Counted from the first letter of the stretch, positions 15,191 to 59,199 are shown. The stretch: DNA of 64,000 bases from Verrucomicrobiia bacterium (GCA_026646655.1 JAPKHT010000005.1:23956-87955); one strand, 5' to 3'. The notes: generated by a model not told the origin, from the sequence alone. Program-made: numbers and translations.

Positions 15191-15215
15191 GGGAGGGCCC
15201 GCGGCCTCGCGGGCC
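15191..15215 (+). repeat. GC-hairpin repeat family C, copy a (GGGAGGGCCCGCGGCCTCGCGGGCC)
   Basis: Perfect 8-bp GC stem GGCCCGCG/CGCGGGCC flanked by GGGAGG. Intergenic. Confidence 0.7.
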
Positions 15216-16525: not shown

Positions 16526-16720
16526 CGGCTTGCGAGGACCGTAACGCGATTGACGCGCGGGGAAGGGCCAAAAACGTAACAGAGTTGTTCACGGGGCGGC
16601 GCGGATCCGAAACCTTGGACGGGCAGCCTACACGCAGATCCAGAAGATCTTTTCGAGGCACGCGGGGGCCGAAAGCTCTCAAAAGGAACAGCGGAAACTA
16701 AGAGGAAAGGACAGAGGAAA

Positions 16721-17770: not shown

Positions 17771-17813
17771 GAGGATGTGAAATAAAGGAACTCACAAGAA
17801 AAGGAACAGACCC

Positions 17814-18470
17814 ATGAAAAAACAACTTACAATCGCGGCGTTCGCCCTGGCTATGACTGCCAGCGGCTGGGCGCAGGTAAACGGCTACTACGCCGCTGGC
17901 AACAGCCTCGACTTCACCAACGTGCTGAGCGCTGGAGGCGGCAGCCTCGGTCTCGGGAATGTCGTGGCCTACGGGAATTTCAACGGCGCGTACTCTGATA
18001 CGGACCTCCAGAACTTCCTATCGGGCGGGCTCACTCCTGCCGAGCTGGCGTCTATCAACGGCGCATTTGATCCGCTGTTCCTTTGGGACATCGGCGATGG
18101 CACGGGTGCGGCAGGTACATTCGAAGTCACTCCGACGACGAACAACGCCACGGCAACGCCGTTTGCAGATGAGCGGATGTACATGCTGATCTACAATGTG
18201 TCTGATTTCGCTAATGCTGATCTGGCGACAGAGTTTGGAGTGTTGCGAAACGACTTCGATCTCGGCACCGGCGGTCGATTTGGAACGCCGGGCGCATTTC
18301 CGATCAGCAGCGAAGGCATCGTGTTCCCCGACAACCAGACGGCGCTGATCGGGTCCTATGTGTCTGGCGGGTTTCAATTGGCCTCGGTTGTCATTCCCGA
18401 GCCTGGGACGTGGGCGATGCTCCTGATCGGGCTGGGGATGGTGGCATGGCGCGCTCGGCGGAAGCGCTAA
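17814..18470 (+). CDS. PEP-CTERM sorting-domain protein
   Basis: Signal peptide, and a C-terminal VIPEPGTWAMLLIGLGMVAWRARRKR (PEP motif, TM helix, basic tail). Confidence 0.8.
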   Translation: MKKQLTIAAFALAMTASGWAQVNGYYAAGNSLDFTNVLSAGGGSLGLGNVVAYGNFNGAYSDTDLQNFLSGGLTPAELASINGAFDPLFLWDIGDGTGAAGTFEVTPTTNNATATPFADERMYMLIYNVSDFANADLATEFGVLRNDFDLGTGGRFGTPGAFPISSEGIVFPDNQTALIGSYVSGGFQLASVVIPEPGTWAMLLIGLGMVAWRARRKR

Positions 18471-18513
18471 TCGAGCGCGTATCAGAAACTTGAAGGGATA
18501 GGAGAAATCTGAA

Positions 18514-20523
18514 ATGAAGATGAGATTGAAGCAGTTCGGGGCGGCGGTGGCGGGGCTGGCGATGGCGGGCGCGGGGAACGCGGCGTTCAACGCGGGGCAG
18601 TACACGAATGGCGTGCCGCAGACGGTGAACGGGGTGACGTTCGTGCTGGTGACCGACCCGGCGAGCGCGATCACGCGGATCACGAACGACACGCGGTGGA
18701 CGGCGAACAACGTGTACGTGCTGGACAAGCTGACTTTCGTGGCGGGCGGGGCGACCCTGGTCATCGAGCCGGGGACGCTGATCCGGGGCGAGCGTCCCTT
18801 GAACAAGACGGGGACGCTGGCGCAGCCGGCGGACCCCGGGACGCTGATCTGCGCGAAGGGCTCGAAGATCATCGCGAACGGGACGGCGGAGTCGCCGATC
18901 ATCATGACGTCGATCGATGATCCGTACGTGCCCGGGGGGACGAACACGATCCCGCCGTGGCTGAACACCAACGCGTTCACCGACCTCGACTGGAAGTACT
19001 ACGACAACACGGTCGAGGACCTGTACGGGGGTGCCGACGAGGGCGGCAACGCGTACGGGCAGCAGGGGTGGTGGGGCGCGCTGGGGATCGCGGGGCAGGC
19101 CCGCGTGGCGCAGAACAACACGAATGGCACGACCTTCGACCTGTCGACCTTCACGAACGGGCAGAACCTGGCCGTCGGGGGCGACTATATCGAGGGCTTC
19201 CAGAGCGTGAGCGATGGCGCCTATGGCGGCACCGACGACGACGACAACAGCGGCGTCTATCGGTTCATATCGATCCGGTATTCGGGGTTCGTGCTGACGC
19301 CGAACAACGAGCTCAATGGGGTGACGTTCGGCGGCGTGGGGCGGGGCACGACGGTGGAGTTCATGGAGTCGTTCAACTCGATGGATGACGGGTTCGAGTG
19401 GTTTGGCGGCTGCGTGAACGCGAAGTATCTGGCGGCGCTCTTCGCCGCGGACGAGGCGTTCGACTACGACGAGGGGTACCGGGGCAACAACCAGTTCCTG
19501 CTGGCGATGCAGGGCAACAAGTACGTCAAGACGAACGCGTCCTCGGGGTACGTCAACACGGGTCGTCCGACCCCGACCGAACAGAATGGGAACCCGCCAT
19601 CGAGCGAGACGATGATCCACGACTCCCTGTTCGAGTGCGATGGCGCCGAGCCCGACAACGGCGGCGGGCGCCCGTATTCGATCCCGAAGTTCTACAACGT
19701 GACGGGCATCGGGCGCGGCACGAACGAGACGCAGACGAGGGACCGGAACGGCCTGCGCTTCAAGCTGGATGCGGGGGGCAAGTTCTACAACGCCATCTTC
19801 GTGGAGCAGGATGGGGGGACGGACAACCTGAGCATCGAGGATGTGACGACGAGCAACAAGTTCGTGTCGGTGCGGTCGACGGGCGGCGAGTACGGGTTCT
19901 CGACGAACGGCGCGGCGGCCACCGAGGAGGACCTGCTGTTTCGGGCGTGCTCCTGGTACGACATCGGCAATGGCGGCGCGACCACGGCGGCGGCCATCAA
20001 CCGGGATGGCTCGACGGTGAAGGATGCGCTGGCGTCGCAGTTCCTGACCAACGCGGCGTACCAGAACACGTTTGACGTGGCCCCCGGCATCGTGAGGGTG
20101 GGGCGGGTCGTCGGCCAGGAGTTCGACCCGAGGCTGACGGGTGGTTCCGCGATGCGCGGCAACACGACATTCACGGCGCCCAACGATGGGTTCTTCACGC
20201 CGAGCGCGAATTTCCGCGGCGCGTTCCGCGACAACTTCTGGCTGAAGGGCTGGTCGTTGCTGGATTATCTGGGCGTCAACACGACCAACGCGTCGGCGTC
20301 GATCAACCCGGTGGTGTCGCTGTCATCCTATGACGGCACCAACGTCGTGGTCTCCTTCGACTCGCAGGCCGGGGTGTACTACTCGATCGAGCGGTCGCTC
20401 GACGGCAAGGCGTACACGCCGCTGACGGTGATCGCGGGCGCCGGGGCCGGGACCACGGTGTACACGAACGTGAACGCCGCCCCGATCTCGGGGGCATTGC
20501 TCTACCGCGTGCTGGCGCTGTAG
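18514..20523 (+). CDS. Large hypothetical secreted protein (possible beta-helix/adhesin-like)
   Basis: 669 aa with signal peptide MKMRLKQFGAAVAGLAMAGAGNA and a GGAGAAA SD. Asn/Gly/Thr-rich. Confidence 0.6.
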   Translation: MKMRLKQFGAAVAGLAMAGAGNAAFNAGQYTNGVPQTVNGVTFVLVTDPASAITRITNDTRWTANNVYVLDKLTFVAGGATLVIEPGTLIRGERPLNKTGTLAQPADPGTLICAKGSKIIANGTAESPIIMTSIDDPYVPGGTNTIPPWLNTNAFTDLDWKYYDNTVEDLYGGADEGGNAYGQQGWWGALGIAGQARVAQNNTNGTTFDLSTFTNGQNLAVGGDYIEGFQSVSDGAYGGTDDDDNSGVYRFISIRYSGFVLTPNNELNGVTFGGVGRGTTVEFMESFNSMDDGFEWFGGCVNAKYLAALFAADEAFDYDEGYRGNNQFLLAMQGNKYVKTNASSGYVNTGRPTPTEQNGNPPSSETMIHDSLFECDGAEPDNGGGRPYSIPKFYNVTGIGRGTNETQTRDRNGLRFKLDAGGKFYNAIFVEQDGGTDNLSIEDVTTSNKFVSVRSTGGEYGFSTNGAAATEEDLLFRACSWYDIGNGGATTAAAINRDGSTVKDALASQFLTNAAYQNTFDVAPGIVRVGRVVGQEFDPRLTGGSAMRGNTTFTAPNDGFFTPSANFRGAFRDNFWLKGWSLLDYLGVNTTNASASINPVVSLSSYDGTNVVVSFDSQAGVYYSIERSLDGKAYTPLTVIAGAGAGTTVYTNVNAAPISGALLYRVLAL

Positions 20524-20672
20524 GGACCGGTCAAGCGGGTGCGGCCAGGGCCGCAGGACTCGATTAGGGGGGTCGCGCCGCCTCGGTGGCGCGGCCCCTT
20601 CGAGTTCGGGGGACGCGGGTGGATACGGTGAGGATGGTCCGGGGTGGCGTGTTGGGTCGAGAGTGTGGAGAT

Positions 20673-22235
20673 ATGGCGACGCGAATAAGACGGTTTGGTG
20701 GCGCGGTGTGCGCGTGGCTCCTGTGCCTGCCCGGGGCCGCCTGGGATGCGCAGGCGGCGGCGGGGAAGGCGGAGTTTCCCGAGGCGTACCGGATCGCCGT
20801 GGAGTTCAGCGAGTTTCTGCGGACGGATTCTGAGCGGGAGGCGAAGTACAAGGAGCGCATCGCGATCCGGTTGGCCGAGGATGGTTTCTTCAGTCAGGCG
20901 GTCGACCTGCTGGGGGGCGTGTCGATGAGCGAATGGAGGCGGCCGCAGGGCATGGCCGGGGTCGCGGCCATCGCCGCGCAGGCGGGAGAGATGGATCTGG
21001 CGCGGGAGCTGACCGGGCGTGCGTCGGCCGAGATCGAACTGCATGGCGACTGGCGGCGTGCCCGCGTGGCGGCGGAGGTGGTGGCGGCCCTCGGGGAGCA
21101 AGGGCGATTCGAGGAGGCGCGACCGCTGTGGGCGACCCTGGAGGGACACGATGGCGAACGGGACTACGCGGCCGGTCGGCTTTGCGCGGCGGCGGCGCGC
21201 CTGAATCGCAGCGACGCATGGGGGGAGCTTTCGGGGGGTGACGGGGCAGGGAAGAGTTCGGGACTCGTGACCTCGGAGGCGAACGCCCTGGTCAATGCGG
21301 CGGCATGGTGCCAGACCCGGGGCGATGCCGGGCGGGCGAAGGAATTTGCGGCACGCGCGCGGGGACTGGCGGAAGGCTTGCTCGCATGGGATGGCTCCGG
21401 GTTGATGGCGGAGGTGGCGACCCAGCTGCGCATGTCCGGGCTCCAGGACGATGCGCGGGCGATGCTCGACGAGGCCGAAACGGTGGCCCTGGCGCTGCCC
21501 GATGGGGTGGCGTGGAAGGCGCAAAATCTCGTGCGGGTCGCGGACGCGCTGCTCGGATTCGGAGATCGCGACCGGGCCGGCGCCCTGTTGGAGGTTGCGG
21601 CCAGACAGCCGGCCCTCCTCCAGCCTCTGGAACGCGGCGAGAGCGCGGCGGCCGTGGCGTACGGGTATCAGCGGCTCCATGGGGGGGACGAGGCCGCCCG
21701 GCGCTGGCTCGCGGCGGCCGAGGTGGCGCTGAAGGATGTGACACACCACCGGGTGCGGAGCATGAGCGTGATCGATACCTGCCTGGCCATGGGCAAGGCG
21801 GGTGTCGCGCCATCGGAATCCGTGAGGGCCTGCCTCGGGCAGGTGCGGGCGATCGTGGAGCGGGACGTGGCCGCGTGGGAGAAGGAGTTTGGGCCCCCGA
21901 AGAAGATCCTGCCGCCCGGGGTCCCGACAACGCGTGGCCACGGTCGCCGTGCCGTGGACGCACCCGCGGGACCATCTGGCCAGAAACTTCGAAGTTCCAT
22001 GCACCACGACGCGTTTCACAACAAACACCTAAACCGTTGGTTATGCGGATGCCGCCTTAAGGCGGCACTACGAGCCCAAGACCACGGGGGTGTTCGTAGT
22101 GCTGCCTTCAGGCAGCCCGGATCCACCAGGTGTCTCCGCATGCAGGAGGCGGGGCGTGCGCGCGCGGGCGGAGGAGTCGGTCCAGAATCACAATCGGCGC
22201 GGTGCTGCCACACGAATGTAACAGAGTGGGCCTAG
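20673..22235 (+). CDS. Hypothetical exported alpha-helical (HEAT/TPR-like) repeat protein; 3' end unreliable
   Basis: Signal peptide MATRIRRFGGAVCAWLLCLPGAAWDAQA and Ala/Leu-rich helical repeats. The frame stays open through the repeat-B element at 22021-22140, and the last ~80 codons look non-coding (Cys/His/Arg junk). Confidence 0.5.
   Translation: MATRIRRFGGAVCAWLLCLPGAAWDAQAAAGKAEFPEAYRIAVEFSEFLRTDSEREAKYKERIAIRLAEDGFFSQAVDLLGGVSMSEWRRPQGMAGVAAIAAQAGEMDLARELTGRASAEIELHGDWRRARVAAEVVAALGEQGRFEEARPLWATLEGHDGERDYAAGRLCAAAARLNRSDAWGELSGGDGAGKSSGLVTSEANALVNAAAWCQTRGDAGRAKEFAARARGLAEGLLAWDGSGLMAEVATQLRMSGLQDDARAMLDEAETVALALPDGVAWKAQNLVRVADALLGFGDRDRAGALLEVAARQPALLQPLERGESAAAVAYGYQRLHGGDEAARRWLAAAEVALKDVTHHRVRSMSVIDTCLAMGKAGVAPSESVRACLGQVRAIVERDVAAWEKEFGPPKKILPPGVPTTRGHGRRAVDAPAGPSGQKLRSSMHHDAFHNKHLNRWLCGCRLKAALRAQDHGGVRSAAFRQPGSTRCLRMQEAGRARAGGGVGPESQSARCCHTNVTEWA
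22021..22140 (+). repeat. Structured repeat family B, copy 1 (double hairpin: ccgccTTAAggcgg, cactacgag...ttcgtagtg, ctgccTTCAggcag)
   Basis: About 85% identical to 45625-45745 over the core gccgccttaaggcggcactacgagcccaagaccacgggggtgttcgtagtgctgccttcaggcag. Confidence 0.75.
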
Positions 22236-22245
22236 AGATTCTCGC

Positions 22246-25173
22246 ATGCGGGATGAGCCACAGCCTTGGATGAGGGCGCCGCGCCGGTTGGCGTGTGCCC
22301 TTGTCGCATTGGCATATGGTTTCACCGTTTCCGATGCGCGTCCGCAGGCCGAGGGCAACCTGGGCGGGATCCGGGGTTCGGTGCTGGACGCCGACGGCGG
22401 CGGGGGCATCGCCAATGCGCGGGTGAGCGTCATGGAGACGGGGGCGTCCGTCCAGACCGATTCGAGCGGGCGCTTCGTTTTCGATGCGCTGGCGCCGGGC
22501 GTCTATTCGGTGAGCGTGACGCGTGAGGGGTACGAGCGGCGGACGGCCTCGGATGTCGCGGTGGTTTCGGGCTCGTTCGCGGACCTCTCGATCCGCATGG
22601 ACTCGCAGGTGTACGAGATGGACGAACTGGTCGTGAGCGGAGAGCTCTTCGCCGAGGGCGAGTCGCAGCTGCTCATCCAGCGCCAGGAGGCCGCATCGTC
22701 CATCGAGTCCCTGGGCTCCGAGTTCTTCTCCAGGGCGGGCACGACGAGCGCGGCCGGGGCGCTGAAGAAGGTCGCGGGGACGACCGTCGTCGACGACAAG
22801 TACGTGGTGGTCCGCGGTCTGGCGGACCGGTATAACAACACGCTGCTGAATGGGGGACGGATTCCGAGCGCCGATCCGGACCGGCGCGCGGTGAACGTGG
22901 ACCTGTTCCCGACCAAGCTGCTGGACAGCATCACCGCGAGCAAGACATTCACGCCCGACATGCCCGGCGATTTCACGGGCGGGAGCATCGACATACAGAC
23001 GCGCAAGATGCCGGAGGAGTTCACGTTCTCCGTGAGCGGGAAGGTGGGCTACAAGAGCAACGCGACATTCAACGACGACTTCCTGAGCTATCGCGGGGGG
23101 GGAGTGAGCTTCCTGGGATTCGACGAGGGGGGGCGGGCGCTCCCGGATGTCACGGACAAGTACGCGCCGGAGGGCGCCCCGCCTTTCCAGACGAAGGACG
23201 AGAGCGTGGCGAAGAAGTGGGACGCGGCCACGCAGGCCCTCTCGCCGGTCCTTGGCGTGGAGGAGGACTCCGCGCCGGTCGACCGCGCGTTCTCGGCGAT
23301 CATCGGCGACACCGTGGAGTTTCTCGGGGTCCCGCTGGGCCTCGTCCTGGGGATGACCTACGACAGGCAGTTCAACGCGGTGTGGGACGGGGAGGAGGGC
23401 CGATATCAGTACTCGGGCGGCGACCAGCTCGCCCCGAAGGGCGAGGACGTGCGGAACATATACCGGTATGACGAGGGCGTCGAGGAGTTGACCTGGGGCA
23501 GCCTCTTCTCCCTCGCGCTCAAGGCGTCGGACGACCACAGCCTCTCGTTCACCATGTTCTTCTCGAAGAGCACGAGCGACACGGCCAAGTATCGCCTGAG
23601 CGAGTTCCCGAATCCGGACAACATGACGCGGTTCGAGCGCGAGACGCTGGAGTACATCGAGCGGACGCTGCTGGCATTCCAGCTCGACGGGCACCACGAG
23701 TTCCTCAACGGCGTGACGGTGGACTGGCTGATCGGCTCGGCGCTGGCGGAGCAGGACGAGCCGGACACGAGGAGCTTCGAGGCGAATGTCATCGTCGACG
23801 GGGATAACCGCACCTACCCGGACCCGGCCTCGGTCCAGAGGCTGTGGAGGTTCTTCGAGGAGAGGTCGGACACGGCGCGGATCGACGTGACGATACCCCT
23901 GGATTCCTCGGGCCGAAACGAGTCGGCGATCAAGGCGGGGTTCTCGTACGAGCGGGCGCGCAGGGATTTCGAGCAGGACGAAGTGTCTTACGTGTCCCAG
24001 TCCGGGTTCGGGTTGAACAGCTATGCCTCGGCGGATGGCACGCGGTGGTCGGAGGTCTATCTGGATCCCGAGTACCTGGGCATCTCGGGGAAGGACAGGC
24101 GGGGCAACTACCTGTTTAGGCGCCTGGCCTATCGTCCGGGCGGCGAGGAGTTGAACGAGTATATCGGGAGGCAGACCTTTGTCGCGGGGTACGCGATGGC
24201 GACGATCGACGTCGCATCTTATCTGGAGCTGATCGCCGGGGCGAGGATCGAGTCGAGCCGGATCAGCGTGCCGGAGCCGACCAGCGACCTGTTCCTGGGG
24301 GATGGCCAGATCGCGCAGAACGACATCCTGCCGGCGATACTGTGCAACTTCGACCTCGCCGAGGACGTGAAGCTCCGATTCGCGTGGTCGCAGACCGTCG
24401 CGCGCCCGACCTTCAAGGAGCTGGCGCCGATCGTCTACGAGGACCCGAATAACATCGAGTTGTTCATCGGCAACCCGGCGCTCGAGATGTCCGCCATCGA
24501 CAATTTTGACGCCAGGATGGAATGGTTCCCCGTGCCGGGCAGCGTGGTGGCGGGGAGCCTGTTCTACAAGAACATCCGCGAGCCGATCGAGCGCGCGAGG
24601 GGCCAGTTTGCCGAGACGGAGTTCGTGCGGTTCGAGAACTTCCCGGAGGCGCAGGTGTACGGGATCGAGCTGGAGATGCGGCATCGTCTCGCCGCGATGG
24701 CGGCGGCGTTCGAGGAGTGGGACATCTTCCGGAATCTGGAGGTGGGCGTCAACGGGGCGTACATCGTGTCGGAGGTCAAGAATCCTCCGGACCTCGTGGA
24801 ACAGCAGCGGCCCTACGGGTATCGGCCGGAGCGCCAGCTCCAGGATCAGCCGACCTTCACGCTCAACGCGAGCATCGCGTACGACAACCCCGACACCGGG
24901 ACATTCATCGGCCTGTTCTACAACCAGACGGGCCCGAGGCTGTACCTGATCGGCAAGAACGGGCTGCCGGACATCTACGAGTTCCCGCCGGCCCAGATCG
25001 ACCTGACCATCCAGCAGGACCTGTGGGAGCACTGGGCGGTGACGCTCCGTGCCAAGAACCTGCTCGATCTGGAGACGGAGCGGCTGCACCAGTCGTTCGG
25101 CGGGGTGGCCAAGGTCTACCAGAAGTATCGCGTCGGGCGGGAGTACTCGATCGGGCTGGAGTATTCGTGGTGA
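22246..25173 (+). CDS. TonB-dependent outer-membrane receptor with N-terminal carboxypeptidase-regulatory-like domain
   Basis: 975 aa. The CarbopepD_reg-like motifs (GSVLDADGGGGIANARVSV...TDSSGRFVF) precede a plug region (VVVRGLADRYNNTLLNGGRIPSADPDRRAVNVDLFP, the usual position of the TonB box/plug), and the C-terminus is a beta-barrel ending ...IGLEYSW. Confidence 0.85.
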   Translation: MRDEPQPWMRAPRRLACALVALAYGFTVSDARPQAEGNLGGIRGSVLDADGGGGIANARVSVMETGASVQTDSSGRFVFDALAPGVYSVSVTREGYERRTASDVAVVSGSFADLSIRMDSQVYEMDELVVSGELFAEGESQLLIQRQEAASSIESLGSEFFSRAGTTSAAGALKKVAGTTVVDDKYVVVRGLADRYNNTLLNGGRIPSADPDRRAVNVDLFPTKLLDSITASKTFTPDMPGDFTGGSIDIQTRKMPEEFTFSVSGKVGYKSNATFNDDFLSYRGGGVSFLGFDEGGRALPDVTDKYAPEGAPPFQTKDESVAKKWDAATQALSPVLGVEEDSAPVDRAFSAIIGDTVEFLGVPLGLVLGMTYDRQFNAVWDGEEGRYQYSGGDQLAPKGEDVRNIYRYDEGVEELTWGSLFSLALKASDDHSLSFTMFFSKSTSDTAKYRLSEFPNPDNMTRFERETLEYIERTLLAFQLDGHHEFLNGVTVDWLIGSALAEQDEPDTRSFEANVIVDGDNRTYPDPASVQRLWRFFEERSDTARIDVTIPLDSSGRNESAIKAGFSYERARRDFEQDEVSYVSQSGFGLNSYASADGTRWSEVYLDPEYLGISGKDRRGNYLFRRLAYRPGGEELNEYIGRQTFVAGYAMATIDVASYLELIAGARIESSRISVPEPTSDLFLGDGQIAQNDILPAILCNFDLAEDVKLRFAWSQTVARPTFKELAPIVYEDPNNIELFIGNPALEMSAIDNFDARMEWFPVPGSVVAGSLFYKNIREPIERARGQFAETEFVRFENFPEAQVYGIELEMRHRLAAMAAAFEEWDIFRNLEVGVNGAYIVSEVKNPPDLVEQQRPYGYRPERQLQDQPTFTLNASIAYDNPDTGTFIGLFYNQTGPRLYLIGKNGLPDIYEFPPAQIDLTIQQDLWEHWAVTLRAKNLLDLETERLHQSFGGVAKVYQKYRVGREYSIGLEYSW

Positions 25174-25199
25174 GGATTTGGTGGAGCAAGAGCAGGAGG

Positions 25200-25976
25200 A
25201 TGAAGACGATGAGACAGTGCACATTGACATTGGCGGCGGTTCTGATGGCGGCCGTGGCGCACGGGCAAGAGGCGTCCGTCTCGCCGCTGAAGGACGCGCG
25301 GCTGAAGCTGGAGAAGTGGGTGGAGGCCGAGCAGCTGATCTCCAAGGAGCGCCAGGACTGGGAGCTGGGCAAGCAGATCCTGGAGGAGCGGGTGTCGCTG
25401 GTGGAGCGTGAGATCAAGGAACTGGGGGAGAAGACCGCCGGGGCGCGGAAGAAGGCGGAGGATGCGGGCTCGGAGAACGGGAAGCTGCGGGCGGAGCGGG
25501 ACACGCTGGAGCAGGCGGGGGCGTTTCTGGCGGAGCGGGTGCCGACGCTGGAGCGGCGGGTGAAGGGGGAGGTGCTGCCGCTGTTGCCGGACGTGCTGCG
25601 GCAGAAGGTGAAGCCGCTGGTGCGGCGGATGCCGGAGAATCCCGCGGAGTCGAAGCTGACGTTATTGGAGCGGTACCAGAACGTGGTGGGGATCCTGAAC
25701 GAGGTGGACAAGTTCAACCGCGAGGTGGTGGTGAGCCGGGAGCTGCGGGCGGTGGGGGACGGGAAGACCGCCGAGGTGCGCACGCTGTACCTGGGGCTCG
25801 GGCAGGCGTTCTACGCGAACCCGGAGAAGGGCGTGGCCGGGCGGGGGATCCCGACGGAGGGCGGCTGGAAGTGGGAGGACATGCAGGGCGCGGCGGGCCA
25901 GATCGCGGAGGCGATCGGCATTTCGGAGAACGAGAAGGTGGCGGACTTCGTGCCGCTGCCGGTGAAGGTGCAGTGA
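25200..25976 (+). CDS. DUF3450-family periplasmic coiled-coil protein (TtpB-like component of TonB2-type systems)
   Basis: Signal peptide MKTMRQCTLTLAAVLMAAVAHGQEA, a strong AGGAGGA SD, and coiled-coil heptads. Sits immediately 5' of the ExbB-like genes. Confidence 0.6.
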   Translation: MKTMRQCTLTLAAVLMAAVAHGQEASVSPLKDARLKLEKWVEAEQLISKERQDWELGKQILEERVSLVEREIKELGEKTAGARKKAEDAGSENGKLRAERDTLEQAGAFLAERVPTLERRVKGEVLPLLPDVLRQKVKPLVRRMPENPAESKLTLLERYQNVVGILNEVDKFNREVVVSRELRAVGDGKTAEVRTLYLGLGQAFYANPEKGVAGRGIPTEGGWKWEDMQGAAGQIAEAIGISENEKVADFVPLPVKVQ

Positions 25977-26088
25977 TACCAACCACGGATGGACACGAAT
26001 GGACGCGAATGGTTTCCCTCGTAGCTGCCGACGTAAGGAGGCAGTCCCACTTAACCACGGATGGAAACGGATGAACACGGACGGGCCT

Positions 26089-27501
26089 ATGAAGATGAAG
26101 ATTTTTGAAGTGGCGGTATTGGGGGTGGCGCTGTGCCTCGCGCCCTGGGCGAGGGCGCAGGAGACGCTGCAGGGCGTGGCGAATCAGGCGGGCGCGGAGC
26201 TGGAGGAGGCGCTGGAGCAGCTCTCGGCGGCGCGCGAGGAGATCGGCAAGGAGAAGATCCCGCTGTCGAAAAAGCTCAGCGGCCTGGAGGACGAGGTGCT
26301 GGCGGCTCGGCGCCAGTACGACGAGGCGGCGCGCGAGCTGGACAACCGGAGCCTCGAGACGGCGAACCTGAAGAACGAGATCAAGGCCAAGAGCCAGGAA
26401 TCGACGTACATCGCGAACCTCCTGGATGAGTATATCCGGAATTTCGAGTCGCGGGTGCACATCGGGGAATTGCAGAGGTACAAGCCGGTGATCGAGGCGG
26501 CGCGCGCGGCATCGGTGAGCGGCGACGCGACGACGCTGTCGAGGCTGACCGAGCAGATGAAGGTGCTGGAGGGGGCGCTGGACCGGGTCAAGCGGGTGGC
26601 CGGCGGCGAGGTGTTTCCGGGGACGGCGGTGGCGCCGAACGGCGAGGTCAAGAAGGGGACCTTCGCGCTCGTGGGGCCGGTGGCGGTGTTCGCCTCGGAG
26701 GACGGGGGCGCGACGGGCCTTGTGGAGCAGAAGCTCGGCTCGACGGAGCCGAACGTGGTGGACGTCGAGGCCGGGGCGTTCGTGAAGCCGATCCGGGACC
26801 TGGTGACCTCGGGGCAGGGCGACATGCCGATGGACCCGACGATGGGCAGCGCGTTCAAGCTGGCCGAGACCAAGGAGACGATCGTGGAGCACATCATCAG
26901 CGGCGGGCCGACGATGGTGCCGATCCTGGGGCTGGCGGCGTGCGCGCTGGTGGTGGCGCTGATCAAGTGGGTCCAGATGGCGAGCGTGCGGGAGGTCGGC
27001 TCGGCGCAGATGGAGAAGCTGTTCAAGGAGGTCAATGAACGCGGCGTGCAGGCGGGGGCGGCGTTCGCGAAGCGCATCGGCGGCCACGTGGGCGACATGC
27101 TGCACGCGGGCCTGAGCCACGTGGGCGAGCCGAAGGAGCTGATCGAGGAGGTCATGTTCGAGAAGGTGCTGGCGGCGAGGCTCAAGGTGAACAACATGTT
27201 GCCCTTCATCGCGCTGTGCGCCTCGGCGGCGCCGCTGCTGGGGCTGCTGGGCACGGTGACCGGGATGATCAACACCTTCAAGATGATCACGGTGTTTGGC
27301 ACGGGCGACGCGAAGACGCTGTCGGGCGGCATCTCGGAGGCGCTGGTGACGACGGAGTACGGGCTAATCGTGGCGATCCCGTCGCTGCTGATGCACGCGT
27401 TCATGTCGCGGAAGGCGGCGGGGCTGATCCAGAACATGGAGAAGGTGGCGATCTCGTTCCTGAACCGGCTGCCTGGAGCGGAGGACCGGAAGGCGGCCTA
27501 G
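26089..27501 (+). CDS. MotA/TolQ/ExbB proton-channel protein with long N-terminal periplasmic coiled-coil extension (TtpC-like)
   Basis: Signal peptide, about 250 aa of coiled coil, then three TM helices carrying the ExbB signature (APLLGLLGTVTGMINTF...LSGGISEALVTTEYGL). Confidence 0.8.
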   Translation: MKMKIFEVAVLGVALCLAPWARAQETLQGVANQAGAELEEALEQLSAAREEIGKEKIPLSKKLSGLEDEVLAARRQYDEAARELDNRSLETANLKNEIKAKSQESTYIANLLDEYIRNFESRVHIGELQRYKPVIEAARAASVSGDATTLSRLTEQMKVLEGALDRVKRVAGGEVFPGTAVAPNGEVKKGTFALVGPVAVFASEDGGATGLVEQKLGSTEPNVVDVEAGAFVKPIRDLVTSGQGDMPMDPTMGSAFKLAETKETIVEHIISGGPTMVPILGLAACALVVALIKWVQMASVREVGSAQMEKLFKEVNERGVQAGAAFAKRIGGHVGDMLHAGLSHVGEPKELIEEVMFEKVLAARLKVNNMLPFIALCASAAPLLGLLGTVTGMINTFKMITVFGTGDAKTLSGGISEALVTTEYGLIVAIPSLLMHAFMSRKAAGLIQNMEKVAISFLNRLPGAEDRKAA

Positions 27502-27512
27502 GGTTTGCGAAG

Positions 27513-28127
27513 ATGGCGGATCTCCTGAAACAGGCGCTGGATATCTGGCAGAAGGGCGGGTGGGCGATGGTGCCCCTGGCCATCGTGAGCTTCATGCTCT
27601 TTTACAAGGGCATGGAGATACGGCTGGCGCTGAAGGACAAGGCGTACCGCAGGGTGGCGGAGCCCGAGTGGCGGGGATGGATCGGGGAGGCCGGGGGTCG
27701 GAAGGGGCCGATCGGGCGGATCATCCATTTCGCGATGCAGAGCCACGACCTCGAGGAGATCGGCGCCCGGTTTGCGGAGATCCGGATCGGGGAGCTGAAG
27801 CCCTTTGCGCGGGATCTCCGGTTCATGAAGGTGTGCGTGGCGGCGGCGCCGCTGCTGGGGCTGCTCGGGACGGTGACGGGGATGTTCGCGACGTTCCAGG
27901 GGCTGTCGATGGGGGGCGGCGGCGAGAAGACGATGGACATGGTGTCGGGCGGCATCTCGGAGGCGCTGATCACGACGCAGACGGGCCTGGTGATCGCGCT
28001 GCCCGGCTATTTCTGGCACTACCAGCTCGCGAGGGAGCGGGACCGGTACGCGGCCTTTCTGGCGCACATGGAGAGCCTGTGCGCGCAGTTCATACACAAG
28101 TGCGTCAAGAAGGGGAGGAAGGCATGA
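27513..28127 (+). CDS. exbB: MotA/TolQ/ExbB proton-channel protein
   Basis: 204 aa with ExbB signature AAPLLGLLGTVTGMFATFQG...SGGISEALITTQTGLVIALP. Confidence 0.85.
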   Translation: MADLLKQALDIWQKGGWAMVPLAIVSFMLFYKGMEIRLALKDKAYRRVAEPEWRGWIGEAGGRKGPIGRIIHFAMQSHDLEEIGARFAEIRIGELKPFARDLRFMKVCVAAAPLLGLLGTVTGMFATFQGLSMGGGGEKTMDMVSGGISEALITTQTGLVIALPGYFWHYQLARERDRYAAFLAHMESLCAQFIHKCVKKGRKA

Positions 28128-28148
28128 GCGAGAGGCTGTTCCTTAGCG

Positions 28149-28208
28149 GACGCCGGGGCCGGCGTCCCTCCGCGCTTGAGGCGGGAGGGCCCGCGGCCTC
28201 GCGGGCCG
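28149..28208 (+). repeat. GC-hairpin repeat family C, copy b (two modules: gacgccggggccggcgtc + gggagggcccgcggcctcgcgggcc)
   Basis: Intergenic between exbB and exbD. Both palindromes were read directly. Confidence 0.7.
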
Positions 28209-28227
28209 GGAGCCAGGGAGGCGATCC

Positions 28228-28638
28228 ATGAAGCGATTCCAGACACTCGAGGAAGACAGCGGGGAGGGCGGGATCGACATGTCGCCCCTCATCGACTGCG
28301 TGTTCATCCTGCTGATCTTCTTCATCGTGACGACGACGTTCGTGGAGGAGACGGGGATCGAGGTGGACAAGCCGCAGGCGGCGTCGGCGTCGAATTTGGA
28401 GAAGAACAGCATCCTGCTGGCGGTCACCGCGGACGGCGCCGTGGTGTACGGGGGGCGGGACATCGGGTTGAACGGGGTGCAGCCGCTGGTGAAGCGGATG
28501 ATCGCGCAGGAGGACATGCCGGTGATCGTGCAGGTGGACAAGAGCGCGCAGGCGGGGCTCTTCGTGCGGGTGATCGACGAGGCGAAGCTGGCGGGCGCGA
28601 CGAAGGTGAGCGTCGCGACCGCGAGGGTGGTCCAGTAG
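28228..28638 (+). CDS. exbD: ExbD/TolR biopolymer transport protein
   Basis: 136 aa with a GGGAGG SD. The TM helix and ExbD motifs are present ([21 protein letters not shown]...[15 protein letters not shown]). Confidence 0.9.
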
Positions 28639-28671
28639 GGCGGTTCGCGGGATGGCGAGCGGGCATCGTGC

Positions 28672-29337
28672 ATGAGCGCGTCACTTAAGGAAGGGCCGGG
28701 GCTGTTTCGGTGGCTGCGCTCCGTATTCTGGGCGGTCGCGTTCAGCGTGGCGGTGTTCCTGGTGCTGCCGTTGCTGCAGGTGATCGGCGGGGGCGGGGGC
28801 AAGGACGATCTGCTGCGGCTGGTGGACGTCGCGCAGCTGCCTCCGCCGGTCGCGCCGCAGGAGCCGCCGCCGGAGCAGAAGCAGGAGGAGCCGGAGCCCG
28901 AGCCGGACCAGGCGCCGCCGGCGCCGCTGGACCTGTCGCAGCTGGAGCTGGCGCTGAATCCGGGTGCGGTGGGCGGCGATGGGGCGGGCATGATCGCGGA
29001 CCTGACGCGGGCGGCGTTCAGCAGGGCGGCGGAGGGCGTGGATGTCGAGGAGGTGTTTTCGGCCTCGGACCTGGACCAGCCGCCGAAGGTGGTCAACCAG
29101 GTGAAGCCGAACTACCCGCCGGAGCTGCGCAAGCAGGAGATCACGGGGCGTGTGCTGGTGGCATTCACCGTGCTGGCCGACGGGAGGGTGACCAACGTGC
29201 GCGTCGATCAATCGACCAACCCGGCGTTCGACCAGGCGGCGCTCGCGGCGGTGCGGCAGTGGCGGTTCGAGCCGGGGCAGAAGGGCGGCAAGTCCGTCTC
29301 GTTTCGCATGAGGATACCGATCAGTTTCAAGCCGTGA
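28672..29337 (+). CDS. tonB: TonB-family energy transducer (N-terminal TM anchor, Pro-rich spacer, TonB C-terminal domain)
   Basis: Pro/Glu-rich spacer PPPVAPQEPPPEQKQEEPEPEPDQAPP, then a C-terminal domain KPNYPPELRKQEITGRVLVAFTVLADGRVTNVRVDQS...FEPG. Confidence 0.85.
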   Translation: MSASLKEGPGLFRWLRSVFWAVAFSVAVFLVLPLLQVIGGGGGKDDLLRLVDVAQLPPPVAPQEPPPEQKQEEPEPEPDQAPPAPLDLSQLELALNPGAVGGDGAGMIADLTRAAFSRAAEGVDVEEVFSASDLDQPPKVVNQVKPNYPPELRKQEITGRVLVAFTVLADGRVTNVRVDQSTNPAFDQAALAAVRQWRFEPGQKGGKSVSFRMRIPISFKP

Positions 29338-29413
29338 TGGAGGAGATATGAAATCGAGTGGAGACAGCAATCTTGCCGCGATGGGCGCTATCGTGGATGG
29401 CGCATCCTCAGAC

Positions 29414-29497
29414 CGGGAGGGACGCCGGCCCCGGCGTCCGGGTTTCACCCGCCTGCGGATGCCTTGTGGGACGCGGCCCGCGAGGCCGCGGGCCCTC
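29414..29497 (-). repeat. GC-hairpin repeat family C, copy c (both modules, opposite orientation)
   Basis: gacgccggccccggcgtc ... ggcccgcgaggccgcgggccctccc. Lies upstream of the preferred start of the TPR gene. Confidence 0.7.
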
Positions 29498-29521
29498 CCT
29501 TCCCGGATCTTGCGGTGGGGG

Positions 29522-30871
29522 ATGGTTCCCCTGGGCTTTGCCCTGGCCTCCGGGGTTTCGGCCCAAGAGCCACAGCCCTCGTGGCCGGTCAACTATTTCC
29601 GCTCGGAGGAATTCAAGCGGGATTTCTTGGGCAGCTATGGCATGCGGACCGACATCGAGCCCTACCTCTCCACCGAGGAGGAGAAGACGCGGATGCAGGA
29701 ACTCACGGACCTGATCGCGACCAACCCGCGGCAGGCGGTGCGCGACCTGATGGAGTACATCACCGACGAGACCAACGCGCAGTTCGATTTCACCCTGGGC
29801 AACCTGTATTTTCAGGGCGGTGACATCGACCGGGCGGCCTCGCGATACTTCCAGGCGACGAAGAAATTTCCGAATTTCCTCCGGGCGCACAAGAACCTGG
29901 GGATGATCCATTTTCGGAAGGGCCGGAACGCGGAGGCGATCAAGTCGCTGACGCGGGCGGTGGAGCTCGGGGGCGCGGACGGGACGGTGCTGGGGATCCT
30001 CGGCCTGGCGTACCTGAACACGGAGCGCTGGCTCTCGGCGGAGTCCGCGTACCGGAGCGCGCTGCTGCTCCAGCCCGACGTGGCGGATTGGAAGCTGGGG
30101 CTGGCGCGGGCGCTGTTCTCACAGCAGAAATTTGGCGAGGTCAGCGCGCTGATCGACGAGATGATACAGCAGTCGCCGGACCGCGCGGACTACTGGCTGC
30201 TCCAGGCCAACGCGTTCATCGGAATGAACCAGCCGATGAAGGCGGCGCAGAACTACGAGATGCTGATCCGGATGAACAAGGCGACGCCCGAGGCGCTGAA
30301 CCTGCTGGGCGACATCTACGTCAACGAGAAGCTCTACGGGCTGGCCGCGAGGGCCTACGTGATGGCGATGGATGTGGAGCCCGACAAGGGGCTGCCGTCC
30401 GGTGTCCGCGCGGCGGAGATCCTGGCGCAGCGGGGGGCCACCGCCGCGGCGAAGGATGTCGTGAAAGGGCTCCGCGACGCGGGCCTGGACAAGCTGGCGG
30501 CGGAGGACAAGCGGCGGGTGCTGAAGACCGAGGCGAGGGTGGCGGCGGCCGAGGGGGCGGGGGACGAGGCGGCGAAGGTGCTGCACGAGATCGTGGATCT
30601 CGACCCGCTCGACGGCGAGGCATTGCTGCTGCTGGGGCAGCACTACGGGCGCAAGGGCGAGCCGGAGAAGGCAATCTTCATGTACGAGCGGGCGGCGGGC
30701 ATCGAGGCCTTCGAGGCGGACGCCAAGGTGCGCCACGCGCAGTTGCTGGTGGAGCAGGGCAAGCTCGAGCCGGCCGTGCCGTTGCTCAAGCGCGCTCAGG
30801 AGATCAAGCCGCGCGACAGCGTCGGCCAGTTCCTCGACCAGGTGGAGCGGATTGTCAGGAGGCGACGGTAG
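29522..30871 (+). CDS. Tetratricopeptide-repeat protein (TtpD-like accessory of TonB2-type systems); alternative start 29348
   Basis: Signal peptide MVPLGFALASGVSAQEP followed by multiple TPR units. The upstream ATG at 29348 has a GGAGGAG SD, but it would put a repeat-C element and a 58-aa n-region inside the CDS. Confidence 0.75.
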   Translation: MVPLGFALASGVSAQEPQPSWPVNYFRSEEFKRDFLGSYGMRTDIEPYLSTEEEKTRMQELTDLIATNPRQAVRDLMEYITDETNAQFDFTLGNLYFQGGDIDRAASRYFQATKKFPNFLRAHKNLGMIHFRKGRNAEAIKSLTRAVELGGADGTVLGILGLAYLNTERWLSAESAYRSALLLQPDVADWKLGLARALFSQQKFGEVSALIDEMIQQSPDRADYWLLQANAFIGMNQPMKAAQNYEMLIRMNKATPEALNLLGDIYVNEKLYGLAARAYVMAMDVEPDKGLPSGVRAAEILAQRGATAAAKDVVKGLRDAGLDKLAAEDKRRVLKTEARVAAAEGAGDEAAKVLHEIVDLDPLDGEALLLLGQHYGRKGEPEKAIFMYERAAGIEAFEADAKVRHAQLLVEQGKLEPAVPLLKRAQEIKPRDSVGQFLDQVERIVRRRR

Positions 30872-30918
30872 CGCAGTGTCGCAGACGTCATGCGCGTCGC
30901 GGCGGGCACCACCGGGAC

Positions 30919-31006
30919 AGAAAATGCAGCCGAGGCCGTGAGGCCTTGGCGGCCAAACGCTTACGCGTTCGGCTACGGGAGGCGATGCGGCATTTTCGGG
31001 TCAGCC
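30919..31006 (-). repeat. Dispersed repeat family A, copy 4 (reverse)
   Basis: Its reverse complement (gctgacccgaaaatgccgcatcgcctcccgtagccgaacgcgtaagcgtttggccgccaaggcctcacggcctcggctgcattttc) is near-identical to copy 2. Confidence 0.85.
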
Positions 31007-31010
31007 GACG

Positions 31011-31035
31011 CGGCCCGCGAGGCCGCGGGCCCTCC
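31011..31035 (-). repeat. GC-hairpin repeat family C, copy d
   Basis: ggcccgcgaggccgcgggccctccc, directly abutting repeat-A copy 4. Confidence 0.7.
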
Positions 31036-31178
31036 CGGCGAGCGTGCCAATGAGCGACCCGCGCGACGACCGGCGTGCGGCGCGTGCCGGGGCCCGCGGT
31101 CTCTTGACAGGGGTCGGGTCTCCGCTAGGGGTTCCGGGTGTGGATGTTGCACATCTGAGGCGTTAGGAGTGACTGGCG

Positions 31179-31523
31179 GTGCATCGGCTTGCTGACATGG
31201 GTGTCCCTGGATCGTGCGGGATCGTCGGGGCGATCGACGAGGCGTCGCCTTTTGGGCGTCGGCTGCGCGAGATGGGGATCCGGGAGGGGGAGGAGTTCGA
31301 ATGGGTGTCGGGCGAGGACCCGGTGTTGCTGCGGTGCGGGGGTTCGCGGCTGGCGGTATGCCGGGAGATGCTGGGTGCGGTGTGGGTGTGCCGGTGTCGC
31401 GGGGCGGGGACGGAGTGCGGATTGACCGGGATGGCGGCGGTGTGCCCCGAGCCGTGCGGGTCGCTCCGCCGGATCGTGTGCCGGGCGGCGAGGGGGGCGA
31501 TGGCGCTGTTCCGTCGGCCATGA
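31179..31523 (+). CDS. feoA: FeoA-domain protein (GTG start) with Cys-rich C-terminal tail
   Basis: FeoA motif LADMGVPGSCGIVGAIDEASPFGRRLREMGIREGEEFEWVSGEDPVLLRCGGSRLAVCREMLGAVWV, with a TAGGAGTG SD eight nt upstream of the GTG. Confidence 0.7.
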   Translation: MHRLADMGVPGSCGIVGAIDEASPFGRRLREMGIREGEEFEWVSGEDPVLLRCGGSRLAVCREMLGAVWVCRCRGAGTECGLTGMAAVCPEPCGSLRRIVCRAARGAMALFRRP

Positions 31524-31756
31524 GGGCGCTCAGCGAGCTGCCGCTGGGAGGCTGCGGGCGATTGGCCGCGATCGATGCGGCGTGCGGGGCCTCGCAGAGG
31601 CTGATGGCGATGGGGTTTCTCCCGGGCGCAGACATTAAGGTGGTGGGCGTGGCGCCGTTCGGCGACCCGATCACGGTGGAGATCCGGGGGAGACGGGTGA
31701 GCCTGCGGCGGGCTGACGCGGCGGCGATCCGGGTTGGGGAAGCGGGTCCGGCGTAG
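31520..31756 (+). CDS. feoA: FeoA-domain protein (second copy, ATGA-overlapped with the first)
   Basis: 78 aa with FeoA motif LSELPLGGCGRLAAIDAACGASQRLMAMGFLPGADIKVVGVAPFGDPITVEIRGRRVSLRRADAAAIRV. Confidence 0.7.
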   Translation: MRALSELPLGGCGRLAAIDAACGASQRLMAMGFLPGADIKVVGVAPFGDPITVEIRGRRVSLRRADAAAIRVGEAGPA

Positions 31757-31795
31757 CTCGAAAATAGGGCGCCCGCAACGCAGCCGCGGATTTTT
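31756..31795 (+). repeat. Truncated repeat family A fragment (5' part only)
   Basis: gctcgaaaatagggcgcccgcaacgcagccgcgg matches the 5' arm of copies 2 and 3. Confidence 0.5.
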
Positions 31796-31905
31796 GGATT
31801 TGGTGTTGACGCACCGCCCGGGAACGTCTTTATTCAGCGTTTGCCCCGGCCCGGATTGGTCCGGGGCTCGCGGTATCTATATCTGTCGAATCTGGAGCAG
31901 CGCAT

Positions 31906-32610
31906 ATGGCGAAGGCGATTGATCTGAAGGCGTACGCGAGGGCGGCCAAGGGGCGCGGGCCCGTGGGCCGACTGAGGCGGAGCGGGCGCGTCCCGGCCGT
32001 GCTATACGGGAAGCGCACCGACGCGGTTTCCCTCGAGGTGGCCGAGAAGGACCTCAACGCGGCGGTCCATGGCACCTCCAGCGAGAACGTCCTGCTGGAT
32101 TTGGACATGGAGCTGGGCGACAAGAGCCGCAAGACGACGGCGTTCGTGCAGCACGTGCAGCACGATCCGGTCACCGGGAGGATCCTCCACGTGGATCTCC
32201 ACGAGATCGCGGCGAACGAGAAGCTGAAGGCGCACGTTCCGGTGCGGTCCCTGGGCGAGCCGATCGGCGTCAAGACATTCGGGGGCATCCTGGAGAACAT
32301 CCTGCGCGAGTTGCATGTCGAGTGCCTGCCGAAGGATCTGCCGGACCGGATCGAGGTGGACGTGAGCGGCCTCAACGTGGGCCAGAGCATCCACGTCAAG
32401 GAGATCGCGGTTCCCGACGGGGTGGCGGTCCTGAATTCTGGCGACGTGGTGGTCTTTGCCGTCGCGGCGCCGACCGTGGCGGAAGAAGAGGCGGCGCCCG
32501 CCGAGGGGGCCGCGGAAGGTGCGGCCGGTGCGGCCCCGGCGGCCGAGGGCGCGGCGCCCGCCGCGGAGGCCGGACAGGCCCCCGAGGCCAAGGGCAAGGG
32601 CAAGGGTTGA
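31906..32610 (+). CDS. rplY: 50S ribosomal protein L25 / general stress protein Ctc, with Ala/Glu-rich C-terminal tail
   Basis: N-terminus MAKAIDLKAYARAAKGRGPVGRLRRSGRVPAVLYG and motifs HVDLHEI...HVKEI are typical of L25/Ctc. Confidence 0.85.
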   Translation: MAKAIDLKAYARAAKGRGPVGRLRRSGRVPAVLYGKRTDAVSLEVAEKDLNAAVHGTSSENVLLDLDMELGDKSRKTTAFVQHVQHDPVTGRILHVDLHEIAANEKLKAHVPVRSLGEPIGVKTFGGILENILRELHVECLPKDLPDRIEVDVSGLNVGQSIHVKEIAVPDGVAVLNSGDVVVFAVAAPTVAEEEAAPAEGAAEGAAGAAPAAEGAAPAAEAGQAPEAKGKGKG

Positions 32611-32640
32611 TCCCGGGCTGGCGACGGAGGAATTTGACGG

Positions 32641-33246
32641 GTGGTGCGCGTGGTCGCGGGTCTTGGAAATCCTGGCGTGGAATACGAGCAGACGCGCCAC
32701 AACATCGGCTATGCGGTGCTGGACTGCGTGGCCGCCCGGCGCGGCGCGCTCTGGCGCGAGCAGCGGTGGTGCAAGGCCGCGGTCGCGGAGACCAATTTCG
32801 GCTCCGCGGAAGGGCCGCGCATCCCGGTCTGGCTGCTGAAGCCGCGCACCTACATGAACCGCTCGGGCGACGCGCTGGCGGCATTCTGCAAGGACAAGGG
32901 GGTCAATCCGGAAGAGGTGCTCGTCGTGCTCGATGACGTGGCGCTGGAGGTGGGCCAGCTGCGGCTCCGGGCGAGCGGCAGCTCGGGGGGCCACAATGGG
33001 CTGGAGTCGATCGAGGAGCGACTCGGGACGAGGGAGTACCCGCGCCTGCGCTGCGGCGTGGGGGCGCCGCGCGGCGGCGATCTGGCGGGGTTCGTGCTCG
33101 ACGCGTTCGCGCCGGGCGAGGCCCTTGCGGTCGACGGCATGATCGACCGGGCGTCCCGGGCGGTGGACGCGGCCTGCACCTTGGGATTGACTGCGGCGAT
33201 GAACGAATTTAATCGGAGGAATGACTCGGAGGGCGGTCGCGGTTAG
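32641..33246 (+). CDS. pth: Peptidyl-tRNA hydrolase
   Basis: GTG start with a GGAGGA SD. Motifs VVAGLGNPGVEYEQTRHNIG, LLKPRTYMNRSG and GGHNGLESI. Confidence 0.9.
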   Translation: MVRVVAGLGNPGVEYEQTRHNIGYAVLDCVAARRGALWREQRWCKAAVAETNFGSAEGPRIPVWLLKPRTYMNRSGDALAAFCKDKGVNPEEVLVVLDDVALEVGQLRLRASGSSGGHNGLESIEERLGTREYPRLRCGVGAPRGGDLAGFVLDAFAPGEALAVDGMIDRASRAVDAACTLGLTAAMNEFNRRNDSEGGRG

Positions 33247-59195: not shown

Positions 59196-59199
59196 CAGT

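Follow-up and report, generated by a model that had tools for sequence, protein, structure and literature searches.

A probable Ttp-type Ton operon with its own outer-membrane module in a Verrucomicrobiia bacterium

The 64,000-nt stretch GCA_026646655.1 JAPKHT010000005.1:23956-87955 of a Verrucomicrobiia bacterium (hereafter the window, in whose coordinates all positions are given) contains seven closely packed genes, all on the + strand (22246-30871), that encode a TonB-dependent transporter (TBDT), a DUF3450 protein, a long and a short ExbB, ExbD, TonB and a tetratricopeptide repeat (TPR) protein. We conclude, with a probability of roughly 85%, that the locus is a chromosomal operon of a verrucomicrobial metagenome-assembled genome (MAG) and that it specifies a Ttp-type Ton system, that is, one of the Vibrio TonB2/TonB3 type, together with an outer-membrane module of its own. 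The gene order given in the original prediction is confirmed by the Pfam content of all seven genes, and the verrucomicrobial origin that it proposed is borne out by an identical TtpC-like protein deposited as 'MAG: Verrucomicrobiae bacterium'. The boundary that it had placed at 22246 does not hold, as the conserved unit starts upstream, at a beta-helix gene. The genes of this extended unit are:

18514-20523, + strand: secreted right-handed beta-helix protein, 669 aa, with a signal peptide (Pfam Beta_helix_4, PF28492, from precomputed tables)
20586-22235, + strand: fast-evolving helical protein, open reading frame (ORF) of 549 codons, no Pfam match, likely signal peptide from M29
22246-25173, + strand: TBDT, 975 aa (CarboxypepD_reg, 4.7e-17, aa 42-118; Plug, 3.1e-07; TonB_dep_Rec_b-barrel, 1.1e-27)
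25200-25976, + strand: TtpB-like periplasmic DUF3450 protein, 258 aa, with a signal peptide (PF11932, 4.5e-25)
26089-27501, + strand: TtpC-like long ExbB, 470 aa, or 476 aa from 26071 (MotA_ExbB, 1.4e-28, only aa 342-457 of 476)
27513-28127, + strand: short ExbB, 204 aa (MotA_ExbB, 4.6e-21; frame from G+C at third codon positions (GC3) and translation)
28228-28638, + strand: ExbD, 136 aa (PF02472, 3.9e-28)
28672-29337, + strand: TonB, 221 aa (TonB_C, PF03544, 8.2e-24)
29348-30871, + strand: TtpD-like TPR protein, 507-aa ORF (TPR_16, 2.1e-29, and many other TPR models)

The tonB2 operon of V. vulnificus has the order ttpB2-ttpC2-exbB2-exbD2-tonB2-ttpD2, in which TtpB2 is a 255-aa DUF3450 protein and TtpD2 a 425-aa TPR protein, and all six Ttp/Ton proteins are needed there for siderophore uptake via TonB2 (PMC6957404). 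TonB2 systems of this kind occur in V. anguillarum and V. cholerae as well. The resemblance to this architecture that had been claimed for the window stands: the same six genes follow one another in the same order, with the DUF3450 gene, the long ExbB gene, the short ExbB-ExbD-TonB set and the terminal TPR gene all present. The likeness extends to a TtpB that is a DUF3450 protein of ~255 aa with an N-terminal coiled coil, a TtpC of ~455 aa with a long periplasmic N-domain and a TPR protein encoded last, and a TBDT gene can sit directly upstream in Vibrio as well (L001; peuA, PMC4141801). The window differs from Vibrio TonB2 loci in a TtpC identity of only 23-33%, in having no site beyond 12/19 matches to the Fur consensus and in its high-GC verrucomicrobial host, and the V. 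campbellii locus includes a 685-aa siderophore-type receptor unrelated to the 975-aa window TBDT with its N-terminal extension. The Alteromonas plasmid pBGP9 carries genes for a beta-helix-family 'hypothetical protein', TBDT, DUF3450, long ExbB, ExbB, ExbD, TonB and TPR proteins in the same order as the window, and its TBDT is 27% identical to that of the window over 861 aa (3e-81); Pseudoalteromonas has the same genes, there with the beta-helix and TBDT genes downstream. These gammaproteobacterial TBDTs differ from the window protein in lacking the CarboxypepD_reg N-domain, the alignment beginning at window residue 125, and the beta-helix proteins of Alteromonas and Pseudoalteromonas, at 931 and 1356 aa, exceed that of the window in size.

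The long ExbB had been predicted to carry a ~250-aa periplasmic coiled-coil extension like that of TtpC, and an AlphaFold2 model (65 homologues in the alignment, mean pLDDT 82.5) bears this out. In the model a periplasmic domain of ~255 aa is joined to a complete ExbB fold with three transmembrane (TM) segments: a hydrophobic segment at the N-terminus (aa 11-22), which may be cleavable or anchoring, precedes one uninterrupted helix of 100 residues (aa 29-128), a pair of shorter ones (aa 131-176) and a small beta domain (aa 180-231), and these are followed by TM1 (aa 282-304), a cytoplasmic helical domain, and TM2 and TM3 within aa 377-466. Foldseek superposed the last ~215 residues of the model on whole ExbB/TolQ chains with target-normalised TM-scores of 0.62-0.69, and a PDB sequence search with TtpC gave matches confined to the ExbB part. 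By BLASTP the protein aligns with TtpC from the V. campbellii TonB2 locus (33% identity over 226 aa, 2e-27, from residue 240 on) and with Alteromonas TtpC (33% over 283 residues, 7e-31), both alignments beginning well upstream of the MotA domain. An alignment of 13 TtpC sequences, including members from the Planctomycetota-Verrucomicrobiota-Chlamydiota (PVC) group, Alteromonas and Vibrio, is co-linear over the full length, with G191, G202, A205, D211, G216, P227, D255, P256 and G259 invariant in the periplasmic domain. The channel-lining motifs LLGLLGTVTGM and GGISEAL(V/I)TT of TM2 and TM3 are kept in both TtpC and the short ExbB.

DUF3450, whose presence in the TtpB-like protein the original prediction had also called for, was detected: PF11932 scored 88.8 bits, above the Pfam cut-off of 32.6, and the match spans model positions 5-240 of 241. 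V. campbellii TtpB matches the same profile at 3e-84. A PDB sequence search with TtpB returned nothing, and Foldseek with the long ExbB found no solved structure covering its periplasmic N-domain, so that the DUF3450 protein by sequence and the TtpC periplasmic domain by fold are both without a match among solved structures.

The remaining motor components resemble the ExbB-ExbD-TonB complex of E. coli. The ExbB fold is contained in the C-terminal ~215 residues of TtpC and in the whole of the short ExbB, and ExbD has a single TM segment (aa 14-44) with the transmembrane Asp in SPLIDCVF and is 71-72% identical to Kiritimatiellota and Planctomycetota orthologues. TonB consists of one N-terminal TM segment (aa 14-43), a Pro/Glu-rich spacer and a TonB_C domain that matches E. 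coli TonB at 9e-10; for TonB C-terminal domains in the PDB, that of V. anguillarum TonB2 (2k9k) among them, the matches lie between 3e-10 and 1e-6. Unlike E. coli, the window has two ExbB paralogues, one of them with the ~255-aa periplasmic domain, as well as additional periplasmic DUF3450 and TPR proteins, and by inspection its TonB TM segment lacks the SHLS histidine. TtpD of V. campbellii, like the window protein, matches TPR models only.

The architecture is far from rare outside Vibrio, contrary to what the original prediction implied. Among 8000 candidates scored, more than 5900 relatives of the long ExbB reached E<=1e-5, and the best 120 all showed at least 87% query coverage and 47-100% identity; their sources include Verrucomicrobiae, Kiritimatiellales, Sedimentisphaerales, Phycisphaeraceae and Omnitrophica, among others. 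When GTDB species were scanned, each represented by one genome, at least 600 pattern matches were obtained, and tblastn, whose criterion would also let through a short ExbB or TolQ gene, confirmed 591 of those listed. Using clean profiles built from the window proteins, we annotated 81 loci from more than 10 phyla (the best 80 of the at least 591 confirmed, plus one Kiritimatiellota genome; handles beginning with L denote individual loci); the counts below are lower bounds, many contigs being incomplete. The best 80 come from Planctomycetota, Verrucomicrobiota, Lentisphaerota, Acidobacteriota, Myxococcota, Desulfobacterota (broad sense), Krumholzibacteriota, Fibrobacterota and Gammaproteobacteria. 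Across the 81 loci the order TtpB-TtpC-(ExbB)-ExbD-TonB-TPR is conserved: a DUF3450 gene lies immediately 5' of the long ExbB gene in 72, two ExbB paralogues are followed by ExbD in 62, a TPR gene comes directly after that for TonB in 63, and a TBDT of the window type occurs within the locus in 29. In another arrangement of the stator genes, found at 12 of the 81, the long ExbB is the sole ExbB-type protein encoded ahead of ExbD.

This operon is the prevailing arrangement in Verrucomicrobiota, Planctomycetota, Kiritimatiellota, Lentisphaerota and Desulfobacterota; other phyla have it too, and within its own phylum the window cluster is unexceptional. TtpB, TtpC and TtpD are no speciality of Vibrio or of marine gammaproteobacteria, contrary to a tendency of the Vibrio literature; in PVC bacteria, as in many other phyla, the Ton system usually has a motor of the Ttp type. 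Because these three proteins are usual in so many phyla, models of TonB action built on the three E. coli proteins omit standard components.

Variation on this theme was seen at several loci. The short ExbB is missing, with the long ExbB directly before ExbD, in L019, L038-L041, L044-L046, L048 and L058, for example, and in L004, whose sequence is a 71%-identical relative (5985-8061), neither ExbB nor ExbD lies between the long ExbB and TonB. Many PVC homologues of TtpC carry extra domains, namely an N-terminal LysM domain in Kiritimatiellales (P0013, P0021, P0116) and a C-terminal cytoplasmic CBS pair in Phycisphaerae and Sedimentisphaerales (P0033, P0099 and many more), which suggests that the motor is anchored to peptidoglycan in the one case and bears a sensor of nucleotides or energy in the other.

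We envisage that proton flow through a pentamer of ExbB-type subunits and an ExbD dimer (5:2-type) would drive TonB, which would pull on the TBDT plug via the TonB box and so admit substrate. The TtpC periplasmic domain, TtpB and TtpD could form a periplasmic superstructure on this motor that positions or regulates TonB; if extended, the 100-residue TtpC helix could span roughly 15 nm. Systems with two paralogues might assemble a mixed pentamer or two separate motors. As 12 of the 81 operons have no short ExbB, TtpC can be the only ExbB-type subunit and is presumably a true stator subunit.

The TBDT has a signal peptide, the CarboxypepD_reg domain (aa 42-118) that the original prediction had described as a carboxypeptidase-regulatory-like N-domain and that is here supported at 4.7e-17, a plug and a ~22-stranded barrel; a putative TonB box, MDELVVSG, can be read from the sequence at aa ~125-132, between the N-terminal extension and the plug. 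Its best NCBIfam match is TonB-Xanth-Caul (TIGR01782), at 218 bits against a cut-off of 310, and members of that family include carbohydrate transporters. Over 860-1060 residues the protein is 26-41% identical to TBDTs beside related Ton clusters in 7 phyla. In L003, L004, Tichowtungia aerotolerans (L005) and many Planctomycetota this TBDT is preceded by a Beta_helix_4 gene and a family-less gene, as in the window, and in other lineages the beta-helix and TBDT genes lie downstream of the TPR gene. Pairing of the beta-helix gene with this TBDT type was found at 17 of the 81 loci, including 11 of the 15 from Planctomycetota, and a positional homologue of the helical protein stands between the two in L003, L004, L005, L006, L008, L017, L025, L030, L032 and L038. 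The beta-helix and helical proteins accompany this TBDT type in PVC bacteria, Myxococcota, Proteobacteria and Bacteroidota. The beta-helix/TBDT pair adjoins a Ttp cluster in Alteromonas and in Pseudoalteromonas chromosome II records; away from any Ttp cluster it occurs in the alphaproteobacterium Indioceanicola, with genes for type II secretion after it, and, as a TBDT with a beta-helix-family partner, in Parabacteroides distasonis.

Comparison with the closest relative, L003, divides the locus sharply in two. The six Ton proteins (TtpB, TtpC, ExbB, ExbD, TonB, plus TtpD) are 86-93% identical to their L003 counterparts, TtpD reaching 93% from residue 56 on, and amino-acid identity is 41% for the TBDT, 44% for the beta-helix protein and 26% for the helical protein. 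In nucleotide sequence the stretch of Ton genes between 25281 and 30865 is 83-87% identical, as against a patchy 64-69% upstream; the high-identity block starts ~80 nt into ttpB and stops at the ttpD stop codon, where downstream synteny also ends. Unequal constraint on the two parts, selection for diversity among surface proteins or the exchange of a cassette may account for this break at the TBDT/ttpB boundary.

The TonB-Xanth-Caul match and the partner proteins bear on what the TBDT imports. The beta-helix protein has a signal peptide and no lipobox, its conserved acidic motifs are DDxDNSG, DDGFExFGG and GDDxFDxDEGYRG, and homologues of it in the Fibrobacterota-Chlorobiota-Bacteroidota (FCB) group carry type IX secretion system (T9SS) sorting domains, which places these homologues at the surface or outside the cell. 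The arrangement recalls SusC of Bacteroidota, in which a CarboxypepD_reg extension also lies ahead of the TonB box and a surface or secreted partner gene is paired with the transporter gene; it differs from SusC/SusD loci in having no SusD gene, a beta-helix protein as the partner and no glycoside hydrolases or lyases annotated in the operon, and the SusC/RagA model was not among the NCBIfam matches of the TBDT. The beta-helix and helical proteins most likely capture or process the substrate at the cell surface, the beta-helix protein probably by capturing or trimming it, and a glycan or other polymer fragment seems to us a more likely substrate than an iron chelate. TonB2 of Teredinibacter serves both carbohydrate and siderophore uptake (PMC10734418). 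We also put forward, as a tentative and on balance unlikely generalisation, that the beta-helix and helical proteins make up, with this TBDT type, a separate outer-membrane module, conserved in Bacteroidota, Proteobacteria and PVC bacteria alike and coupled by preference to Ttp motors. If that were true, the much greater divergence of the surface components than of the motor between close relatives (41-44% against 86-93% identity) would be in keeping with a specificity cassette that is exchanged or diversifies, perhaps one for polymer-fragment uptake in SusD-lacking Planctomycetota and Verrucomicrobiota. The conserved TBDT/beta-helix pair is a defined candidate for an uptake specificity and the part of the locus most worth following.

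Two tandem FeoA genes begin 325 nt downstream of the TPR gene and overlap each other by 4 nt:

31197-31523, + strand: FeoA 1 (7.1e-10)
31520-31756, + strand: FeoA 2 (6.2e-21)

These genes had been taken as a hint at iron, and the corresponding explanation is that the operon serves to take up iron or siderophores, as Vibrio TonB2 does, with the FeoA genes in the same iron regulon. It draws on the fact that those Vibrio TonB2 systems that have been characterised are under Fur control and transport siderophores (PMC6957404), on the closeness of the FeoA genes and on ferrochelatase and protoporphyrinogen oxidase genes ~10 kb upstream on the other strand. We nevertheless regard it as improbable. 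FeoA was adjacent to the cluster in none of the 81 loci, lay within the locus, kilobases from the cluster, in two, and was absent from L003 despite its 86-93% identical Ton genes, and on this synteny we rejected a link between FeoA and the Ton cluster. No FeoB G1 motif was present in any frame of the 64-kb window, and the best 19-mer matched the proteobacterial Fur consensus, in place of which the host lineage may use another motif, at 12/19 positions; the two sites of this quality within 15000-32000 are both inside coding sequence. Haem and transferrin receptor models scored the TBDT at a negligible 18-27 bits, and the siderophore-type TBDT linked to V. campbellii TonB2 had no BLASTP similarity to it. 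The V. vulnificus TonB3 set, a paralogous one of the same architecture, takes no active part in iron transport (PMC6957404); Fur regulation and siderophore transport characterise TonB2 in particular and not TonB3. A Ton motor as a rule serves several TBDTs, and this one may still power the uptake of iron elsewhere in the genome; the FeoA neighbours are no sufficient ground for annotating the operon as an iron system. The first FeoA (31197-31523) has a Cys-rich C-terminal tail.

Two further explanations change the direction or the purpose of the motor. Oar of Myxococcus carries a CarboxypepD_reg N-domain, as does the window TBDT, and the latter might similarly work outward, Ton energy being used to carry the neighbouring beta-helix protein out through the outer membrane. 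The pair is kept in many phyla, and PVC bacteria and Proteobacteria lack the T9SS used by the FCB homologues of the beta-helix protein, which itself has a signal peptide with no lipobox. We consider export highly unlikely: the barrel matched no Oar-type family, only the generic PF00593 and PF14905, the Indioceanicola pair adjoins genes of an ordinary export route, type II secretion, and TBDT-mediated export is, to our knowledge, known from a single case. That the cluster is instead a Tol-Pal-like or other envelope-maintenance 5:2 motor is, in our estimation, extremely unlikely. TolQ/TolR models of NCBIfam match below threshold yet score equally with the ExbB/ExbD models, the cluster lies among housekeeping and envelope genes (BamA, Skp, LpxD), and TPR proteins accompany Tol systems too (CpoB; PMC12204202). 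Neither TolB nor Pal is encoded in the operon or its flanks, however; the transducer has a TonB_C domain (8e-24), and the operon holds a TBDT with a TonB-box-like motif, of a type that recurs beside such clusters.

Several observations weigh against the assignment of the locus to a Ttp-type nutrient uptake system with its own surface module. At E 0.01, pairwise BLASTP aligned neither TtpB nor TtpD with the Vibrio proteins, and their tie to Vibrio consists of the DUF3450 profile, TPR content and position only; for TtpD this is unsurprising, because identity is ~35% even among Vibrio species (PMC6957404). The TtpC N-domain of the window gave no DUF3450 match at E<=1, its similarity to TtpB was weak (hhalign probability 34% over 174 co-linear columns), and direct hidden Markov model (HMM) tests between the two were marginal (E ~1e-3, mostly in coiled coil). 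The TBDT fell under the cut-off of every curated NCBIfam subfamily, and a PDB search, which matched its N-domain only, found no solved TBDT relative by sequence. A beta-helix fold is no proof of enzymatic or glycan-binding activity, as NosD and adhesin passenger domains also score well. Our view of the genome is one of 64 kb, from which any further Ton systems elsewhere would not be visible, and the literature that we searched on DUF3450, on TtpC with Alteromonas and on PVC Ton systems contained no functional study outside Vibrio, Aeromonas and Teredinibacter and none on a PVC member.

On the TtpC N-domain, relatives speak more clearly than the window protein itself. PF11932 matches the N-domain of Alteromonas TtpC at 1.7e-07 and those of two PVC homologues, ~50% identical to the window TtpC, at 1e-05, all below the gathering score, and in a 2025 survey DUF3450 is recorded as a domain appended to the N-terminus of ExbB-like subunits (PMC12505986). 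On balance, we regard the TtpC N-domain as probably a divergent DUF3450 domain.

The G+C content of the window is 64-70%, and GC3 marks the coding frames clearly. Intergenic gaps measure 10-33 nt, except for 100 nt before ExbD and 94-112 nt before TtpC, the latter depending on the start; NCBI places the TtpC start at 26089 (470 aa), and starts further upstream at 26071 or 25999 are possible. The TtpD start probably lies at 29459 or 29522, which would give a protein of ~450-470 aa, because relatives align only from residue ~56. An ORF at 27560-28231 was rejected as the short ExbB gene, being off-frame by GC3 and translating into Arg/Gly-rich nonsense; the real gene is 27513-28127. An Rfam scan of the whole window found no match in or near the cluster, and promoter and terminator scans of 15000-32500 gave counts not above those for shuffled sequence and are hence uninformative. 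In the ORF at 20586-22235 the GC3 coding signal is lost after ~21936, and the last ~100 codons have no counterpart in relatives (375-429 aa); the product is probably too long as annotated, or a stop codon has been lost in assembly.

Upstream of the beta-helix gene are two + strand genes of lower G+C, one for a secreted 349-aa Thr/Ser-rich protein with no family match (16721-17770) and, just before the beta-helix gene, one for a secreted 218-aa PEP-CTERM protein (17814-18470; 8e-08); L003 has size-matched genes at both positions. An orphan OmpR-type response regulator gene (13119-13802, + strand), with no adjacent kinase gene, has similar upstream counterparts in Tichowtungia (L005, 1973-2665) and a Brocadiaceae MAG (L032, 3-443); such a gene being found in few loci only, we rejected it as a member of the unit. 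On the other side, genes for ribosomal protein L25/Ctc and peptidyl-tRNA hydrolase (31906-33243, + strand) lie a few kb from the TBDT/beta-helix pair, as they do in Parabacteroides distasonis (L090, 10456-11689), a proximity that is probably coincidence.

Elsewhere in the window, a cobalamin riboswitch (54349-54568, - strand; 45.5 bits, gathering score 31.5) precedes a - strand operon encoding a 467-aa protein of no family (52837-54237), a 750-aa He_PIG Ig-domain protein (50588-52837) and a DUF4430 protein (49534-50580), which may be an unconventional set for B12 capture or uptake. A homologue of bacterial pentameric ligand-gated ion channels (57999-59381, - strand; Neur_chan_LBD 8e-14, Neur_chan_memb 5e-11) adjoins a gene for an 845-aa sulfatase, and a 1222-aa protein with ThuA, HEAT repeats, an F5/8 type C domain and DUF6807 (4572-8237, + strand) is flanked by two GFO/IDH/MocA oxidoreductases.

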